From positions 53,759-117,758 of the forward strand of contig CAUZDY010000004.1 of NCBI GenBank assembly GCA_963578805.1: a stretch of DNA of 64,000 bases, written 5' to 3'. The translations under genes were made by a program, and so were the position numbers. Under the pieces are notes generated by a model, which saw only the letters and a list, made by a program, of their open reading frames with translations, was not told the origin of the DNA and ran no database searches. This DNA is from Vicinamibacteria bacterium (GTDB taxonomy: Bacteria > Acidobacteriota > Vicinamibacteria > Vicinamibacterales > UBA8438). This document shows positions 4,302 through 12,297 of this stretch, in pieces; position 1 is the first letter of the stretch, and every line of letters begins with the position of its first letter.

Positions 4302-6446
4302 CTACTTCAGTCCACGCCGTGCGAGGAGTGGTCCGATGTCGGGGCTAGCACCCCGAAAATCGAGGAATAACGTCATCGGCTCGCGACTGCCTCCCTTTGA
4401 AAGAAGCGCCCGCCGAAAATGGTCGCCGTTCCGCCGGGTGAGTCCGCCGTTCGCTTTAAACCACTCAACAGTATCAGCATCAAGTACCTCGCTCCATATG
4501 TAAGAGTAGTAGCCAGCTGAATAGCCACCGCTCCAAATATGGGAAAAGTAGGTACTGCGATACCGTGGCGGAACAGTCACGAGCGCAACGCCGGCAGCCT
4601 CAAGTGCGGCTGCTTCAAACGCCTCCACGTCTTCGGCACCAGGCACGTCGTCAACACCTAGCTGGTGCCAGGCTTGATCGAGCAGTGATGCGGCCAGATA
4701 CTCAGTTGTCGCAAACCCCTGGTTGAACGTTTCGGTTGCGAGCACCTTGGCGAGTAGCTCCCGTGGCATCGGCTCGCCGGTCTCGTGATGTATGGCGTAA
4801 TTCTTAAGTACCGCGGGCCACGTGGCCCACATTTCGTTCACTTGTGACGGGTATTCCACGAAATCTCTCGGCACAGATGTACCTGCAAAGTACGGGAACC
4901 GTACGTCTGAAAACAGACCGTGCAGAGCGTGTCCGAACTCGTGGAACATCGTCTCGACTTCATCGAAAGTCAGTAATGTCGGCTCCCCCTCTGGAGGTTT
5001 TGACACGTTTAAGTGATTAGCGATGACTGGCCTGGTTCCAAACAGTTGGGACTGCGAGACATACGAACTCATCCAGGCCCCACCGCGCTTGGATGGACGA
5101 GCGTAGTAGTCGGCAACAAAGAGACCCAACGGCGAACCATCGGCGTCAAAAACCTCCCAGATTCGCACGTCAGGATGGTAGACGGGCAATTCCCTACGTT
5201 CCTCGAAAGTTAACCCATAGAGACGGTTGGCCGCGAAAAACACACCGTTCTGGAGAACGTTGTCCATTTCGAGGTAGGGACGCAGCTCAAAAGCTTCAAA
5301 GTCGAATCGAGCCCCCCGCACCTTCTCGGAGTAGTAGGCCCAGTCCCACGCCTCGACGGCGATGCCATCACCTGCAGCGAACGACTGGAGGTCGGCCACC
5401 TCGCGCTCGGCGTTCGCAACCGCAGGCGCCACGAGACTAGCGAGCCGCGTGTTCACCGCGTCGACCGTCTGAGCTGTCTCCTCTTCAAGAACATAAGCCG
5501 CGTGGTTAGGGTACCCAAGCAGGGCTGCCCGTTCGGCGCGAAGGTGGGCTATCCGGCTGATGACTGCCCGATTGTCAAACTCACCACCCTGGCTGTTCCG
5601 CACCAGCGAGGCCCGCGTGATCCGTCGGCGCAGTGCGCGATTCTCCAACGATGACAACGCCGGCTGCCCACTGGTATTAAGCAGCGCCACGACGTACTTG
5701 CCTTCCAGGTCACTGACCTTGGCCGCCTCTGCGGCCGCCGCGATCTGATTGTCAGACAAGCCCGTGAGTTCCTCCCGGGTGTCGACGACGACCGTCGAAA
5801 CATTGACCTCGTCGAGGACGTTCTGACTAAACGTAGCTTGCAACGTGGCCAACTCAGCATTGATGACCTGCATGCGTGCCTTCTCTGACTCCGATAGCTC
5901 AGCGCCTGCCCTCACGAAGTCGGTGTAGTACTCCTCAATCAATCGATGCGACTCCTCGTCAGCGTCAAGCGTCTTGCGTTGAGCATGTAGTGTCTTGATC
6001 CGCTCGAAGAGGGCTGGATTCAGAAGAATCTGGTCGCGGTGCGCGGCGAGCCGTCGCGCAATCTCTGGGCGCATCTCGTTCATCGCGTCGTTTGTGTCCG
6101 CAGTCGCTAAAATAAAAAATGTCGTCGCGACACGGTCAAGTAGACGGCCCGATCGCTCCAACGCAACGAGGGTGTTCTCGATGCTTGGAGCGTCCGGCGT
6201 GCTCGTAATCACATTCGTTTCGTCCAGCTGTTCAGCGATTCCCCTCTCAAAAGCCGGGAGGTAGTGATCGGTATCGATTTGATTGAAGGGTGGTAGCTGG
6301 TGTAGCAACGAGCTTTCGACAAAGAATGGGTTCATCTTGTTTATCGGAACGCCGGCAGGGCGCATGCTTGGCTCAGACAACGTACAGGTAACCACCACCA
6401 GTGCCAGTCCCAACACGATCGGACTCACGAACGGCTTCATAGACAA
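4302..6446 (-). CDS. dcp: M3-family peptidyl-dipeptidase Dcp, with signal peptide
   Basis: HEFGHALH, RDFVEYPSQVNE, KRGGAWM, GYSAGYYSYIW. Confidence 0.93.
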   Translation of the reverse strand: MSMKPFVSPIVLGLALVVVTCTLSEPSMRPAGVPINKMNPFFVESSLLHQLPPFNQIDTDHYLPAFERGIAEQLDETNVITSTPDAPSIENTLVALERSGRLLDRVATTFFILATADTNDAMNEMRPEIARRLAAHRDQILLNPALFERIKTLHAQRKTLDADEESHRLIEEYYTDFVRAGAELSESEKARMQVINAELATLQATFSQNVLDEVNVSTVVVDTREELTGLSDNQIAAAAEAAKVSDLEGKYVVALLNTSGQPALSSLENRALRRRITRASLVRNSQGGEFDNRAVISRIAHLRAERAALLGYPNHAAYVLEEETAQTVDAVNTRLASLVAPAVANAEREVADLQSFAAGDGIAVEAWDWAYYSEKVRGARFDFEAFELRPYLEMDNVLQNGVFFAANRLYGLTFEERRELPVYHPDVRIWEVFDADGSPLGLFVADYYARPSKRGGAWMSSYVSQSQLFGTRPVIANHLNVSKPPEGEPTLLTFDEVETMFHEFGHALHGLFSDVRFPYFAGTSVPRDFVEYPSQVNEMWATWPAVLKNYAIHHETGEPMPRELLAKVLATETFNQGFATTEYLAASLLDQAWHQLGVDDVPGAEDVEAFEAAALEAAGVALVTVPPRYRSTYFSHIWSGGYSAGYYSYIWSEVLDADTVEWFKANGGLTRRNGDHFRRALLSKGGSREPMTLFLDFRGASPDIGPLLARRGLK

Positions 6447-6710: not shown

Positions 6711-7340
6711 TTAGTAGAAATCGTGGGACTCAACGTCTGGACCGGCCGTCCATAACCCTTGACACCGCCGGGCCTTGACTGAGGTCACGCCATCCTGGAT
6801 CTGTAAGCGTCCGTCGATCAGAAGGAACGGCTGCTCGAGAATGATCATTTTTTGCTCGGTAAAAAGTGGCGGTCGAATGATGACGTTTAAGAATCCGGTC
6901 TCATCTTCGAGCGTCAGAAAAACGAACCCTTTCGCCGTTCTAGGACGTTGCCTAGTAATGACGGCACCAGCTACGCGTACACGACGCCCATGTCGAACTC
7001 GGGGTAGATCGGCAGCACGTAGCACACCCCGCATCGCCAGCTCCTGACGCCGGAACGACATCGGATGAGGCCCAATCGTCAGACTTGTCCCCTTGTAATC
7101 AGCCACGACCCGTTCAACCGGAGTCATGGTTAGTAATGGTGAAGCTGCGGACTTCTCTCCTGACCCCTGGAAGAGCACCCCCGCTTTTTTTGCCGCCTTC
7201 TCGATCTGCCACAACGCGGCCCGGCGGTCATATCCAAACGTATTGAGCGCCCCAACCTCTGCCAGGGTCGCAAGCTCTTCACGATGCACACCCGTCCGCG
7301 CGATGAAGTCATCCAATGAACCGAACCGAGCTTCACTCAT
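6711..7340 (-). CDS. dnaE2: Error-prone DNA polymerase DnaE2, C-terminal part (second half of HhH, OB fold, terminal motif)
   Basis: F.SLDD..ARTG, OB-fold RQRPRTAKGFVFLTLEDETG, ends SHDFY (DnaE2 SRDF-type motif). ATG overlaps upstream TGA (ATGA), preceded by GGAGGT. Confidence 0.9.
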   Translation of the reverse strand: MSEARFGSLDDFIARTGVHREELATLAEVGALNTFGYDRRAALWQIEKAAKKAGVLFQGSGEKSAASPLLTMTPVERVVADYKGTSLTIGPHPMSFRRQELAMRGVLRAADLPRVRHGRRVRVAGAVITRQRPRTAKGFVFLTLEDETGFLNVIIRPPLFTEQKMIILEQPFLLIDGRLQIQDGVTSVKARRCQGLWTAGPDVESHDFY

Positions 7341-10018
7341 GACACCTCCCAATCATGTGCACACGTGCAACAAAACAGACGCTTACCAGCCACCGTCTGG
7401 ACACTGTCGAGCATCGATGGATCATCACACCCGCATTGAGGGCAAAAGAGTCTGGGGTCGGAGCTGGTCGGAGATCGGAGTTCCTTAGTCGCGAGTCGTT
7501 GGTCGCTGATCGTGGGGGGGCGGACCGACTCAATCGCCCGGCCCACGACTTCGCGTAGCCCTGCGATGTATCGCAACCCGAGCCGGATCGTGCCGTCGTC
7601 ATCCACCGTGCAATCCCAGTGCGAGTACTGGACGTCGATTCCAGCGAAACGCACCCCGTGGCGCTGGGCATCTTTGACGAGCGTCGCCGGACTGTAGAAC
7701 CCCATCGGCTGGTTGTTGAGTAACGCCGTATAGAACGCCGCTGGATAGTGGACCTTGAGATAGGCACTCGCATAGACCAGTAACGCAAAGCTGGCGGCAT
7801 GCGATTCAGGAAAGCCATACAACGCAAACGGCACAATCGATTGGACAACCTGCTCGATCGTCTCACCGGTAATCCCCTGCCGCTTCATCCCCTCGCGAAG
7901 CTTGGTCTCGATCTGCTTCATCCGACGCTTCGACCGCTTGAATCCCATTGCGCGGCGAAGCTCCTCTGCTTCCCCTCCGGTAAATCCAGCGGCCACCATC
8001 GCGATCCGTAACAACTGTTCTTGAAATAACGGCACCCCGAGGGTGCGCTTCAGAATCGGCTCGAGTGACGGATGGGGATACGTCACCGGCTCCCGGCCGG
8101 CTCGACGATGCAGATAGGGGTGCACCATCTGCCCCACAATCGGACCTGGGCGGATGATCGCTACTGCGACGACAATGTCATAGAACCGCTCGGGGCAAAA
8201 TCGTGGCAACATGGCCATCTGAGCGCGTGATTCCACCTGGAATACGCCAACGGTGTCAGCTTCTTGCAACATGCGATATACCTCCGGGTCATCGGGAGGC
8301 AGGTGTGCCAGATCGACCTTTGGTATCGGCGTGTTGATGAGGGTGATCGCTTCCTGGATCGCCGCCAGCATTCCCAACCCCAACAGGTCGACTTTGACGA
8401 TGCCCATATCGGCACAGTCATCTTTATCCCACTGCACGACGACCCGGTCCGGCATGCTCGCGTTTTCTAGCGGCACAACCTCATCGAGCCGCCCCTGGCA
8501 GATCACCATCCCTCCAGAGTGCTGACCGAGATGACGTGGTAGATCCTGGATCTGCTTCCAGAGATCTCCGAACGACTGTATCGTCGAATCAGTGAAATCG
8601 ACGCCAACCTCACGCAGACGCGTGTCCAGACGCTCGTCAGGATCGGTCCACTCAAAATTGTGCATCGCTTTCGCCAGTCGATCGATTTGCATGGATTCGA
8701 TCGATAACGCCTTTCCAACCTCACGAGCCGCGCTTCGACCTCGATAGGTGATGACGTTGGCCGTCATGCCGGCACCGAGTCGACCGTAGCGTTCGTACAC
8801 ATACTGGATGACCTGCTCGCGAAGTGCACCACTTGGCAGATCCAGATCGATGTCGGGCCACTCACCGCGTTCCTCTGACAAGAACCGCTCAAAAAGTAGT
8901 CCCATCCCAACAGGGTCGACAGCAGTAATGCCCAGGCTGTAACAAACCGAGCTATTGGCGGCTGACCCGCGACCTTGAACCAGGATGCCGTGCTGTCGAC
9001 AGTAATTGACAATGTCCCACACGATGAGAAAGTAGCCATCCAAGTCGAGTTTCTCGATCAGGTCGAGTTCCCGTTCCACTTGACGCCGTGCGCGGTCGCA
9101 ATACGGACGATATCGCTCCCGTGCACCAACCTCGGTGATCTTCCGAAGAAATGAGCTCATCGTTTCCTCGGAAGGCACCGGATACTTTGGCAAGCGATAT
9201 CCGAGATCTGCCATCGTGTAACTCAGGCGATCGGCAAGCTCACGCGTCGCCGTAACCGCATCTGGAAGATCCCGAAACAATGCGGCCATCACGGACGGTG
9301 GTTTCAGATACCGCTCAGCGTTTTGGTGAAGACGCCGGCCAACTCGAGCGAGTGTGGTCTTGTGACGGATACAGGTCAGCACGTCATAGAGTGGTCGGCT
9401 TGAGGTGTCCGCAAACCGCACGCCGTTTGTGGCAATCACCGGCACGTGATAGGCCGATGCCATCGCCCGAAGCGCGTGGTTGTCGTGCTCCTCCTCCCGG
9501 AGGAGATGTCGCTGAAGCTCGACATAAACCTGCGTGCGGCCAAACAACCCAAGCAACCGGTCGAGTACGCCGCCGACGCCGTAGCTATGTCCCATCAGCG
9601 CAGGGCGACCGACCAACGCGACCAGCCCAGTCGCATACCCATCGAGCTCTTCGAGTGCAAGCGCCCCTTCGCCTTTGGGTGCACCCAGTTTTATCCGAGT
9701 AATGAGACGACTGAGGTTTCGATATCCCTCTTGGGTTTCAACCAGCACAGGCAGATGCCACACCGCCGGAAGACAAGGCTGTGAACGTGTCCCCTGACTG
9801 GCCCCGTTCGCCCTGATTGTGAGTTCGCTTCCGATGATCGGTTTCACGCCGGCGGCCACGGCAGCTTTGTGAAACCTCGGAGCCCCATACACACCATCTC
9901 GATCAAGGAGAGCAAGCGCCGGATAATCCAAGACTGCGGCCCGCTCCACCAACGTTTCGGGCAGCGATGCGCCGTCGAGAAAGGAAAATGCCGAAGCGGC
10001 GTGGAGTTCGATATACAC
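7337..10018 (-). CDS. dnaE2: Error-prone DNA polymerase DnaE2, N-terminal part (PHP, polymerase core, first half of HhH, zinc ribbon)
   Basis: YIELHAASAFSFLDGAS PHP start, GRGSAANS, PDIDLD and KVDLLGLG catalytic motifs, FPESHA; ends CPQC...CCTCAHDWEVS*. Confidence 0.93.
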   Translation of the reverse strand: MYIELHAASAFSFLDGASLPETLVERAAVLDYPALALLDRDGVYGAPRFHKAAVAAGVKPIIGSELTIRANGASQGTRSQPCLPAVWHLPVLVETQEGYRNLSRLITRIKLGAPKGEGALALEELDGYATGLVALVGRPALMGHSYGVGGVLDRLLGLFGRTQVYVELQRHLLREEEHDNHALRAMASAYHVPVIATNGVRFADTSSRPLYDVLTCIRHKTTLARVGRRLHQNAERYLKPPSVMAALFRDLPDAVTATRELADRLSYTMADLGYRLPKYPVPSEETMSSFLRKITEVGARERYRPYCDRARRQVERELDLIEKLDLDGYFLIVWDIVNYCRQHGILVQGRGSAANSSVCYSLGITAVDPVGMGLLFERFLSEERGEWPDIDLDLPSGALREQVIQYVYERYGRLGAGMTANVITYRGRSAAREVGKALSIESMQIDRLAKAMHNFEWTDPDERLDTRLREVGVDFTDSTIQSFGDLWKQIQDLPRHLGQHSGGMVICQGRLDEVVPLENASMPDRVVVQWDKDDCADMGIVKVDLLGLGMLAAIQEAITLINTPIPKVDLAHLPPDDPEVYRMLQEADTVGVFQVESRAQMAMLPRFCPERFYDIVVAVAIIRPGPIVGQMVHPYLHRRAGREPVTYPHPSLEPILKRTLGVPLFQEQLLRIAMVAAGFTGGEAEELRRAMGFKRSKRRMKQIETKLREGMKRQGITGETIEQVVQSIVPFALYGFPESHAASFALLVYASAYLKVHYPAAFYTALLNNQPMGFYSPATLVKDAQRHGVRFAGIDVQYSHWDCTVDDDGTIRLGLRYIAGLREVVGRAIESVRPPTISDQRLATKELRSPTSSDPRLFCPQCGCDDPSMLDSVQTVAGKRLFCCTCAHDWEVS

Positions 10019-10029
10019 GCGCTCCCTCT

Positions 10030-11448
10030 CTAATCCATCAGTCCTTCGACAAACCAGCGCTTGGAAACTCGATCCCGAAAAATCCGATACACGCCGCCGT
10101 CGCTCAGCTCAACGTCCCATTCATCGTGGTCCCATACTGAATAGGACGGCATCCACCAACGCCCCGAGCTTCGCCATGGCCCGGCGCATGTGACTACCCG
10201 TCCATTCGCCGAGTTCGGCTGCAACGTCGACACTCGCACGGGGTATCCGTGCTCAACGGTCACCCGAGCCGATACCGGATGACGAAATCGACGAAGCACA
10301 GACAATAGACCTGTGCCAACCCGCGGCTGTTCGTGTTTGGGGGGATGAGACTTGGGGGCGAATGGGCACATCTCAAACACCCCAGGCTGGTGGGTATCGA
10401 CCAGTGCCGGTGACCCGCAACGCTGGTCCCCCATCAAGACCGTCAACCGAACCAGTAATGTCGATAGACTTTCCGCAGACGGAACAGCCCTTTCTAACAG
10501 AGAGAACTGCCGTGTCCGCGCAGGGACCGGGTCGGCCACGACTGTCACGCGGTCGATTCCGGTCGATGGTGGATGTGCGTCCAGGTCGAGAAGGATGAGT
10601 GTTCGTAAGACGTTCGGGTCGCTGACCGCCGTCGGAAATCGTAATGTGCGTTCATGGGTCTGGCGTGACACCAACGTCAATCGGACACGCAGCCTCTCGG
10701 CGGCTACCCCACGCTTCTTGAGATGCGCACACAGCGGATCGAGTACCCGGCCGAGTACAAATGACAGAAGTTCGAGACCTTCGATCGGCCACTCAAGTGT
10801 CACCGTCTCCTCGAACCGTTCTGCCACTGCCTCTGGGACAAGCGGCCGACTATCCTCGCCACGTGCGATCCTCTGGAACTCCAGGCCACCGTGGCCCAAT
10901 CGGCTGAACAGTTCGTTCGCTGGCAGAGCCGCAAGCTCACCAAGCGTTCTGACCCCCCAGCGCTGCACCACAGGCAACAACATGAGCACTGATACGACAC
11001 GTGAAGACAATGCAACCGAACCCACGGTACGCTCGGAACTTGACCGACGTGTTCGTATCGGTCTACCCAGAATGCTGGTCTGCGCTTTTGAAAGCTGCTT
11101 TACAACTGAAATCGGCAAAGTCGACAGCGCCTCGGCCTCAGCGTGTGATGGAATAATCGTAAGCTCGCACCGTCCCTGTGTCGCCAGCAAGGCCGCCATT
11201 TTCGTCCCAGCAACGGCGACGCGTATACCAAGGTCCCGCTCAGCAGCAACGCGTCGCAATCGCTCACCCATCTCACGTGGGGGACCCCACACATGTTTCA
11301 GCCCATGTACATCCATCACGACAAGGTCTGGACCATGCACCTCGACTCGTGGCGAGTGCTCGTGTGCAAGGTGTACGAGTGTATTTATGAGATCCAATCC
11401 GGAACGAGAAGTGGTGGAACGTGGTGGGTGGTAGAGACAGGCGAACAT
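10030..11448 (-). CDS. imuB: ImuB-like catalytically inactive Y-family polymerase
   Basis: SPRVE, WGVRTLGELAALP, C-terminal GPWRSSGRWW...DEWDVEL; lies between an imuA-like gene and dnaE2; start set to MFACLY. Confidence 0.85.
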   Translation of the reverse strand: MFACLYHPPRSTTSRSGLDLINTLVHLAHEHSPRVEVHGPDLVVMDVHGLKHVWGPPREMGERLRRVAAERDLGIRVAVAGTKMAALLATQGRCELTIIPSHAEAEALSTLPISVVKQLSKAQTSILGRPIRTRRSSSERTVGSVALSSRVVSVLMLLPVVQRWGVRTLGELAALPANELFSRLGHGGLEFQRIARGEDSRPLVPEAVAERFEETVTLEWPIEGLELLSFVLGRVLDPLCAHLKKRGVAAERLRVRLTLVSRQTHERTLRFPTAVSDPNVLRTLILLDLDAHPPSTGIDRVTVVADPVPARTRQFSLLERAVPSAESLSTLLVRLTVLMGDQRCGSPALVDTHQPGVFEMCPFAPKSHPPKHEQPRVGTGLLSVLRRFRHPVSARVTVEHGYPVRVSTLQPNSANGRVVTCAGPWRSSGRWWMPSYSVWDHDEWDVELSDGGVYRIFRDRVSKRWFVEGLMD

Positions 11449-11454
11449 GGGAGA

Positions 11455-11517
11455 GAGAATCGTGGGTTGTGGGTTAAAAGTGGTGAGTCGTGGGTCGTGA
11501 GTCGTGAGTTTTGAGTC
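11455..11517. repeat. Degenerate heptamer tandem repeat (about 9 units, consensus GTGAGTC)
   Basis: gagaatc gtgggtt gtgggtt aaaagtg gtgagtc gtgggtc gtgagtc gtgagtt ttgagtc in register. Confidence 0.8.
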
Positions 11518-12214
11518 GAAGCTGATAACTGGGATAACGTGTCGACTCCACACGCGTATCAATGTCTATTCCGCGAAATACTCGGTTTTGCGTTGCGTCA
11601 CCTGACCATTGCGTTGAGCGAGACACCCCAAGAACGATCGAATGACCACCGGCGCTCCTGCCCATTGCTGTAGAGGCAACGACGATTCCAATCGTCTCAC
11701 TCCCCTTGATGGCACGCGCTAGTCGTAACCAGGTTGTAAACGGCAAACGCCGGAGAGCCTGCGCCGGAGCCTCTGCAAAATCAACTGCGATGACACCAAA
11801 TCGATCGGTCTGCGTGACAAGACCTACCGCTTTGACAGCCTGGTCGATACAGTGAAAGGCCATTCGTGGTGCACTCTGGCGTCCGCGGACCCAGAGCACA
11901 CGAGACAAGTCGACCCCAGCCGCCTGGCTCGATACCGGGTCGAAGTTGTCGAACGTATCGATAAGCGCTACGGCCTCGCCTCGGTCGGTGGCGGCTGCAA
12001 TGACTGCGGCCAGCACACTTGTCCGCCCAGATGAAGGGGGACCGACAACTTCGGAAAGATGTCCCCGAGCAAGCCCCCCACCCAGAGATTTATCGAGTTC
12101 ACTCACGCCTGTCGTGGCCAAGCGCTCCACAGGTAACAGACGCGAGGAAACGAGTGAATCGCCGAGGCTCTTTGCGTGTAGTAGAGACTCAAGTTTGGCT
12201 ATATTTGTGTTCAT
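11474..12214 (-). CDS. imuA: ImuA-like RecA/RadA-fold protein
   Basis: TGVSELDKSLGGGLARGHLSEVVGPPSSGRTS (Walker A with K to R), AGVDLSRVLWVR; first gene of cassette. Confidence 0.82.
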   Translation of the reverse strand: MNTNIAKLESLLHAKSLGDSLVSSRLLPVERLATTGVSELDKSLGGGLARGHLSEVVGPPSSGRTSVLAAVIAAATDRGEAVALIDTFDNFDPVSSQAAGVDLSRVLWVRGRQSAPRMAFHCIDQAVKAVGLVTQTDRFGVIAVDFAEAPAQALRRLPFTTWLRLARAIKGSETIGIVVASTAMGRSAGGHSIVLGVSRSTQWSGDATQNRVFRGIDIDTRVESTRYPSYQLRLKTHDSRPTTHHF

Positions 12215-12261
12215 TTCGCTTTTTGTTCGCCTATTGTATCTAAGCTCAGCAGGTTGGTCAA
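12214..12261 (-). promoter_or_regulatory. Sigma70 promoter with overlapping LexA (SOS)-like box
   Basis: Minus strand TTGACC (12261-12256), 17 nt, TACAAT (12238-12233); then GAAC-N7-GAAA (12228-12214), one mismatch from the GAAC-N7-GAAC LexA box of Alphaproteobacteria/Acidobacteria. Confidence 0.75.
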
Positions 12262-12297
12262 TCTCCAACAGCGGCCTGCTAAAATGAACAAGAGGAC

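Follow-up and report, generated by a model that had tools for sequence, protein, structure and literature searches.

A DnaE2-type DNA polymerase encoded by two overlapping genes in a genus of Vicinamibacterales

DnaE2, an accessory polymerase of the C family, has been described as a single chain, and a broad survey of these enzymes rejoined fragmented polymerases where intact relatives existed (Timinskas et al., 2013; PMC3919608). In the parts of this survey that are considered here, the intein-split DnaE of cyanobacteria (citing Caspi et al., 2003) and zinc-binding Lar-like domains in one DnaE1 are named, but neither a split DnaE2 nor a zinc ribbon in the loop between the two helix-hairpin-helix (HhH) motifs is mentioned (PMC3919608). 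Full-text literature searches likewise returned no published description of a split dnaE2. Here we describe a dnaE2 that is divided over two overlapping genes, found in a stretch of 64,000 nucleotides (nt) of contig CAUZDY010000004.1 from a Vicinamibacteria bacterium (GCA_963578805.1, UBA8438); this whole stretch is the window to which all coordinates refer. The upstream open reading frame (ORF), termed N-part, comprises 893 residues and the downstream ORF, termed C-part, 209 residues. The break is a real and inherited feature that recurs in this genus of uncultured Vicinamibacterales (Acidobacteriota), and the two products may function together as a two-subunit polymerase, as sequence comparison and structure prediction suggest.

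How does this locus compare with the closest described systems? With the standard DnaE2, as characterized in the same parts of the survey (PMC3919608), it shares the order of PHP domain, Pol3 core, fingers, (HhH)2 domain and OB fold, the lack of a C-terminal tau-binding domain, the catalytic aspartates, the position in an operon after imuA and imuB and the presence of a separate intact DnaE1; it differs in being encoded by two overlapping genes cut inside the (HhH)2 domain and in carrying a four-cysteine ribbon between the HhH motifs. The two-gene DnaE2 is a variant of a known enzyme and not a new system. The split DnaE of cyanobacteria is also a C-family polymerase in two pieces, but its pieces are encoded at distant loci and spliced into one chain by intein halves, whereas the genes described here are adjacent and overlapping. 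A Pfam scan found no intein or Hint family at E≤0.01 in either ORF, in agreement with the original prediction, made from the sequence of the locus alone, that no intein is involved. Moreover, the C-part begins just four residues before a conserved RF motif and therefore leaves no room for a C-intein, and the tail of the N-part is a zinc ribbon that is found in one-piece relatives, too. Any association of the two halves would thus have to be non-covalent. Outside the C family, the archaeal PolB of Methanothermobacter is a naturally split polymerase, and split DNA polymerases have reportedly been found in phages. These resemble the present case in being replicative-type polymerases assembled from two chains that are translated separately, but belong to families B or A, are broken at other points and occur in other organisms. 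The nearest relatives are one-piece DnaE2 proteins of the same order (loci L011, L013-L018, L021, L023, L025 and many of L065-L140), which have the same ribbon motif in the same place and are 60-70% identical in the region of the C-part. In these the chain is continuous, with a repeat-rich linker of 5-60 residues after the ribbon, where the split genus has its stop/start junction.

The N-part aligns to residues 6-848 of the Escherichia coli Pol III alpha subunit (E about 1e-124) and matches the Pfam families PHP, DNA_pol3_alpha and finger. Since it also covers positions 1-45 of the 90-position HHH_6 profile and the C-part covers positions 48-89, the (HhH)2 domain is cut between its two HhH motifs. 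The DnaE2 domain set (PHP, core, fingers, (HhH)2 and OB, without C-terminal tau-binding domain) is complete, albeit distributed over two ORFs that lie in different frames in all nine DnaE2-bearing genomes of the genus. Past its first HhH motif the N-part continues for 60 residues (834-893) up to ...CAHDWEVS-TGA, and the C-part ends 13 residues past the OB match. ORFs and Pfam matches agree with the layout given in the original prediction, that is, an N-part of 893 residues that is DnaE2-like up to the first HhH motif and ends in a cysteine-containing tail of about 60 residues, followed by a C-part in the -1 frame. The PDIDLD motif was likewise correctly reported as kept: D389, D391 and D393, together with D544, are invariant in an alignment of 15 N-parts, and by homology to E. 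coli alpha we take these to be the catalytic residues. The genome contains a second, intact alpha homologue (DnaE1), a 1183-residue open frame with 34% identity on contig C43, and the two-ORF pair is therefore a DnaE2-type accessory polymerase; the genomic association of DnaE2, with imuA and imuB upstream and a separate DnaE1, is present.

At the junction, GGGAGGTGTC-ATG-A gives the 4-nt ATGA overlap at 7340-7337, and in GGGAGGTGTCATGA the ATG of the C-part overlies the TGA of the N-part. The start of the C-part is the ATG at 7340, the ORF listing extending the open frame to a TTG at 7352. Upstream lies a Shine-Dalgarno-like motif, whose GGAGG is separated from the ATG by 4 nt (TGTC); the spacing of 3 nt originally stated holds when the motif is counted as GGAGGT. 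GGAGG or GAGG occurs no more than 10 nt from the C-part start at six of the nine junctions in the genus. It seems from the sequence that a ready-made ribosome-binding site pre-existed at exactly the position of the break.

Is the break genuine? The original prediction had allowed for a 1-nt deletion by mutation or assembly error as the second of two readings. A base missing from the assembly of a one-piece gene has to be considered, as the source genome is a metagenome-assembled genome (MAG) of 164 contigs and scattered dnaE2 frame breaks are found in other Vicinamibacterales MAGs. However, when positions 7000-7700 were compared with contigs from four further public runs, the junction was crossed by contigs from three of them, which come from three different studies (X3 with 7133-7365 and 7347-7436, X4 with 7000-7365 and 7337-7436, and X5 with 7218-7368), with zero inserted or deleted letters across 7337-7352. 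A related strain is represented by two X4 contigs, which differ by 6-8 substitutions and are likewise free of insertions and deletions. Furthermore, all nine genomes described below are split at one place, yet with different junction sequences and frames, and in all nine the stop and start codons are in place. The split is thereby confirmed as a real inherited feature; sequencing or assembly error is extremely improbable, and contigs and relatives together refute the 1-nt deletion as a recent event or artefact.

The genus is represented by 11 species genomes, nine of which carry a close homologue of the C-part, in every case in a short open frame and with the break immediately behind the HDW of the ribbon. 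The nine include three single-contig genomes (G002, G004 and G005). G001 has no C-part homologue and G009 has a distant one-piece type only (36% identity). In five of the nine the genes are joined by an ATGA overlap, with N-parts ending in HDWEVS (G000 and G007) or in DWTIV (G006, G008 and G010), and the others have TGATG or a start at a distance of 1-10 nt. In G004 the N-part ends in HDWEMR at a TGATG junction. In G005 and G003 it ends in HDWEV-TGA, and the C-part, in the +1 frame, has as possible starts a GTG that follows the stop by one base and an ATG further upstream. In G002 the N-part stops after HD and the C-part, again in the +1 frame, has a TTG or an ATG available. Overall the frame of the C-part is -1 in six genomes and +1 in three, and the starts (ATG, GTG or TTG) all lie within about 25 nt of the N-part stop. 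As the nine junctions differ, they are not one lesion copied nine times; judged from the sequences, such drift is the pattern expected once small insertions and deletions at the boundary are harmless and the two ORFs are translated separately. The comparison with orthologues that the original prediction had proposed thus finds the break itself in nine of nine genomes, the ATGA in five and the Shine-Dalgarno-like motif in six.

The variable shift also bears on programmed ribosomal frameshifting, by which a single full-length chain would be made as in dnaX or prfB. The Shine-Dalgarno-like GGGAGG just upstream of an in-frame TGA speaks for such recoding, an arrangement that recalls the +1 site of prfB in outline. 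Against it stand 1) the shift required, which would have to be -1 in six genomes and +1 in three; 2) the absence of a slippery heptamer and of any conserved sequence at the shift point across the nine junctions; 3) the usable start codon of the C-part in every genome. Neither a conserved slippery site nor a common direction of shift was found in the nine genomes, and recoding is accordingly judged very improbable.

A further possibility is that the frameshift inactivated DnaE2 and that the gene is a decaying pseudogene. The gene is dispensable, since G001 and G009 lack this DnaE2, and G003 contains extra breaks. Codon alignments were made for the last approximately 500 codons of the N-part and for the C-part from eight genomes, G003 being left out for its extra breaks. 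The ratio of nonsynonymous to synonymous substitution rates (dN/dS, Nei-Gojobori) ranges from 0.06 to 0.23 in the N-part and from 0.05 to 0.23 in the C-part over all pairs with computable dS, dS being 0.09-0.74 within subclades and above 1 or saturated between them. Such low values over a divergence at which an unused frame would gather stops indicate that both pieces are kept under purifying selection. Besides the dN/dS values of 0.05-0.23 on both halves at dS above 1, eight of nine genomes are free of internal stops, start codons were maintained or re-created after the frame had drifted, and the catalytic aspartates are invariant, all of which argues against decay. Outside G003, relaxed selection and further breaks are not seen, making a pseudogene a very unlikely explanation.

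Stand-alone halves are also found among database proteins. A search of 5.8 billion proteins, covering lengths of 114-366 residues, gave 3009 matches to the C-part, and the 120 matches listed include more than 60 clusters of stand-alone C-parts, which are 209-229 residues long and located on contigs of up to 7 Mb. All 32 stand-alone C-parts that were aligned start with a methionine shortly before the RF motif, with 1-4 further residues between them in 30 cases and 7-8 in two. Searching with the N-part tail revealed 17 clusters without OB fold (15 of 849-937 residues and two shorter ones cut by the contig end) and in addition one-piece proteins of 1036-1202 residues with OB fold. A cluster look-up returned no protein name for the eight members sourced from NCBI. 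In an order-wide tally, which includes two unpublished genomes (G312 and G333), 336 of 401 genomes had a match; none of the individual statements made here depends on these two genomes. As far as sampled, the two-gene DnaE2 is confined to one genus of Vicinamibacterales. A quick maximum-likelihood tree was calculated from N-part residues 401-833 for 73 rows, excluding 14 loci of duplicate genomes, identical sequences and rows without one clean high-scoring segment pair of at least 400 residues. All eight split rows fall into one clade (Shimodaira-Hasegawa-like approximate likelihood ratio test 97), which also contains one continuous row, G024. The tree is consistent with a single origin of the split. 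The dnaE2 of G024 (locus L012), a 2.1-Mb genome of the same family, is of one piece and ribbon-less, with a linker of 15 residues between HhH1 and HhH2 and a long branch; either loss of the ribbon preceded the split or the two genes were re-fused by a deletion.

Can the two halves form one enzyme? Residues 540-893 of the N-part were modelled together with the C-part, a separate alignment being supplied for each chain. The interaction scores (interaction prediction score from aligned errors, ipSAE) were 0.82, 0.82 and 0.81, and the highest-scoring of three controls gave 0.00; of 80 solved complexes 58 attain the mark used for this score, as do 2 of 110 mismatched pairs. At least 90% of contacts are common to the runs, the partner pLDDT (predicted local distance difference test) is at least 81 and there are 107-110 confident contacts. 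On the N-part side the predicted interface consists of residues 774-834, that is the first HhH motif and preceding residues, and 598-636 in the fingers, and the C-part contributes residues 3-34 from its second HhH motif, residues 82-92 and several positions in the OB fold. The second HhH motif is predicted to touch residues 791-829 of the N-part, and the first HhH motif to form most of the interface. The prediction of the two-chain structure, which had been suggested as a check, therefore gives halves that would be joined via the (HhH)2 domain. As one-piece Pol III alpha structures are solved, the model demonstrates that the known architecture can be restored from the halves, and not that they bind in the cell.

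Alternatively, the halves may have subfunctionalized, the N-part polymerizing alone and the HhH-OB protein having a DNA-binding or regulatory role of its own. E. coli alpha truncated at residue 917 keeps activity, and alpha cut at this residue folds and was crystallized (2hnh, 4jom); separate genes would also allow separate dosage. On the other hand, all nine genomes have kept the two genes side by side and overlapping, and the N-part possesses only half of the (HhH)2 domain, so that HhH1 would be unpaired. Together with the large predicted interface of 107-110 confident contacts, this renders independent roles of the halves unlikely.

The original prediction had supposed that the two chains might be docked by the zinc ribbon, which in the N-part is formed by C859-P-Q-C862 and C883-C-T-C886. 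An alignment of the loop shows that most one-piece DnaE2 proteins of Vicinamibacterales have a ribbon of the form CPKCGxDDxSM[LI]E-(6-11)-FCNxCAHxW in the corresponding position, and the ribbon is thus older than the split. A pattern scan of related loci found 90 distinct versions, and the four cysteines are invariant in an alignment of 57 rows. The ribbon is absent from L012, L020, L026, L027, L055, L071, L120, L121 and L131 as well as from a distant DnaE2 type in other genera of the family (L028-L032). Since it is missing from several lineages, it has disappeared more than once and the fold does not require it. The confident contacts of the predicted complex do not include ribbon residues 859-890, although residues that are not named count as uncertain and not as excluded. 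The idea of a docking ribbon is not supported, given that the ribbon predates the split and that the predicted interface names residues of HhH1, HhH2 and OB instead; in the model it does not appear to act as a clamp between the halves, but to be a separate, older module, perhaps for binding DNA or a partner. AlphaFold predicts three beta strands for it with a mean pLDDT of 85. No Pfam family matched the ribbon above cut-off, generic ribbons being found below threshold only (best E 0.055), and a Foldseek search of the PDB gave nothing at E≤0.001, the best hits being generic ribbons with E above 1. A ribbon profile run against 1.84 billion proteins yielded 220 matches at E≤0.001. Fragments of DnaE2 rank highest, and among the weaker matches, starting at about E 1e-10, there are many free-standing proteins of 37-62 residues with CPxCGNDD...M[IL]E...FCxVC. 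These small proteins (P0228, P0233, P0241, P0250-P0252 and P0257-P0298) share the motif CP[HK]CGNDD..M[IL]E....FC.VC[AS]K.[WF]. For 14 of them no Pfam family was found above cut-off and only weak matches to PHROGs of unknown function. From their sequences it is possible that they are the source or relatives of the inserted module.

The loop that contains the ribbon is hypervariable. In one-piece relatives the spacer between HhH1 and HhH2 measures 6 to 390 nt and is rich in short repeats, and in the closest relative, G007, 16.7 translated copies of the 7-nt unit CGACCCT lie just before the ribbon (L064, 5766-5885). Outside the genus, 34 of 150 listed match rows have open frames shorter than 900 residues. 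Twenty of these, all from other families, were fetched: three are cut by the contig end, one has a masked run, five are in frame across the loop and 11 change frame between the HhH motifs, five of the latter breaking at several points along the gene. A frame change in the repeat-rich loop after or within the ribbon was noted in L041, L051 (=L073), L052, L053 (=L139), L137, L050, L058 and others, and L051/L073, from a short-read MAG, has three copies of CACGAGC at the shift. At the three junctions that were read closely (L041, L051 and L052) the shift occurs within repeats that are palindromic or have a 7-nt unit, and the vicinity of the RF motif lacks a start codon. Frame changes of this type were considered as the same clean two-gene form and rejected, as their downstream part lacks a start codon. 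They could be assembly errors, pseudogenes or phase variation by repeat number.

Taken together, we favor, with a probability of roughly three in four, a fission of dnaE2 in the common ancestor of the genus, in the long hypervariable HhH1-HhH2 loop directly after the older ribbon, that gave rise to a two-subunit DnaE2. It could be imagined that a loop that tolerates any length, often shifts frame and is then followed by a Shine-Dalgarno-like sequence was a plausible cradle for a fission that became fixed. The two pieces would be translated as separate chains, the C-part being started by termination-reinitiation or by the Shine-Dalgarno-like TGGGAGG of the conserved Trp-Glu codons. The chains might then reassemble non-covalently by fragment complementation, HhH motif 1 of the N-part packing onto HhH motif 2 of the C-part and the OB fold to yield the normal DnaE2 architecture, and the resulting two-subunit error-prone polymerase would work within the ImuA-ImuB-DnaE2 mutasome. 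The natural two-subunit reading, one of the two originally offered, gains support from recurrence in nine of nine genomes, purifying selection, contigs free of insertions and deletions and many database proteins, on contigs of megabase size, that consist of the N-part or the C-part alone. Four points weigh against this explanation: 1) the Shine-Dalgarno-like motif is weak in three of nine genomes (G006, G008 and G010); 2) G003 has two further frame breaks, and this genome, with 7% contamination, may be a poor assembly or hold a real pseudogene; 3) binding of the halves is a prediction, and pieces of a divided gene tend to score well in such a test because they resemble solved one-piece polymerases; 4) the continuous G024 lies inside the split clade with an unsettled placement, which leaves the order of events unfixed.

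According to the ORF list and Pfam, the two dnaE2 genes are the last of a four-ORF operon imuA-imuB-dnaE2N-dnaE2C on the minus strand (Table 1), and the order imuA-imuB-N-C is kept in all four other genomes of the genus for which 6-kb flanks were fetched. The start of the imuA-like gene is uncertain, a TTG at 12268 being listed and an ATG at 12214 being an alternative. Upstream of the operon, both promoter-like hexamers (TTGAC-17-TAnAnT), recognized by consensus match only, are kept in five of five aligned genomes of the genus. The GCGAAnAAAAAGCGAA repeat is a candidate operator, possibly of the LexA/SOS type, this assignment of the motif being a guess. With regard to the DNA-damage-induced mutagenic synthesis that characterizes DnaE2, the conserved promoter-like site and this candidate operator are what the upstream region shows. 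The overlap of the imuA end and the imuB start contains 5.7 copies of the 7-nt unit AGTCGTG (11479-11518). Directly downstream of the C-part lies an ORF of 714 residues (4302-6446, minus strand) that looks like an M3-type peptidyl-dipeptidase by its HEFGH motif. In at least five relatives the C-part is followed by an ORF with the same conserved terminal residues. The organism of this locus is found in seawater metagenomes.

Table 1. Positions of the features of the split dnaE2 locus within the window
Feature	Positions	Strand	Remarks
dnaE2 C-part, 209 residues, MSEARFGSLDD...SHDFY	6711..7340	-	second HhH, linker, OB fold
OB fold, C-part residues 121-192	6765..6980	-	PF01336, 31.2 bits vs cut-off 27
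Second HhH motif, C-part residues 3-41	7218..7334	-	HHH_6 positions 48-89 of 90
ATGA stop/start overlap of N-part and C-part	7337..7340	-	4 nt; C-part in -1 frame
dnaE2 N-part, 893 residues	7337..10018	-	PHP, polymerase core, fingers, first HhH, variable loop, zinc ribbon; stop TGA
GGGAGG, Shine-Dalgarno-like motif for the C-part	7345..7350	-	from Trp-Glu codons (TGG GAG G) of the conserved HDWE motif
Zinc-ribbon module, C859-x2-C862...C883-x2-C886-A-H-D-W890	7349..7444	-	sequence and N-part alignment
First HhH motif, N-part residues 788-833	7520..7657	-	HHH_6 positions 1-45 of 90
PDIDLD catalytic motif, residues 388-393	8840..8857	-	sequence
imuB-like gene (Y-family polymerase-like)	10030..11562	-	IMS PF00817, 23.5 bits vs cut-off 23.2
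imuA-like gene (inactive RecA-like)	11474..12268	-	RecA PF00154, E 2.4e-11, partial
GCGAAnAAAAAGCGAA, CGAA-N7-CGAA direct repeat	12215..12230	-	conserved, directly after -10 hexamer; five upstream regions aligned
Promoter-like site TTGACC-17-TACAAT	12233..12261	-	10/12 consensus matches; upstream of operon

To our knowledge this would be the first intein-free, naturally two-chain polymerase of the C family (Pol III alpha-type), and the conserved zinc ribbon of Vicinamibacterales DnaE2 has itself gone undescribed. The break marks a position inside the (HhH)2 domain of DnaE-type polymerases at which the backbone tolerates a cut, which is useful for studies of domain function and for the engineering of split polymerases. 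For annotation it is a warning, as rejoining such genes or discarding them as frameshifted would misjudge the presence of a working mutasome. Moreover, the fission is tied to a loop that is laden with repeats and prone to frameshifts across the order, suggesting a concrete route to gene fission. Tentatively, the fission could also be adaptive and not neutral, assembly of the mutasome becoming a regulated step that gates error-prone synthesis in the genus, though we hold this to be rather unlikely. If it were adaptive, regulation might act via the ratio set by translational coupling or via turnover of the small subunit, and the ribbon at the free C-terminus could become a new docking point for ImuB, ImuA or DNA. 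The frameshifting repeat loop of other Vicinamibacterales would then be a natural on/off switch, of which the two-gene form would be the fixed outcome.

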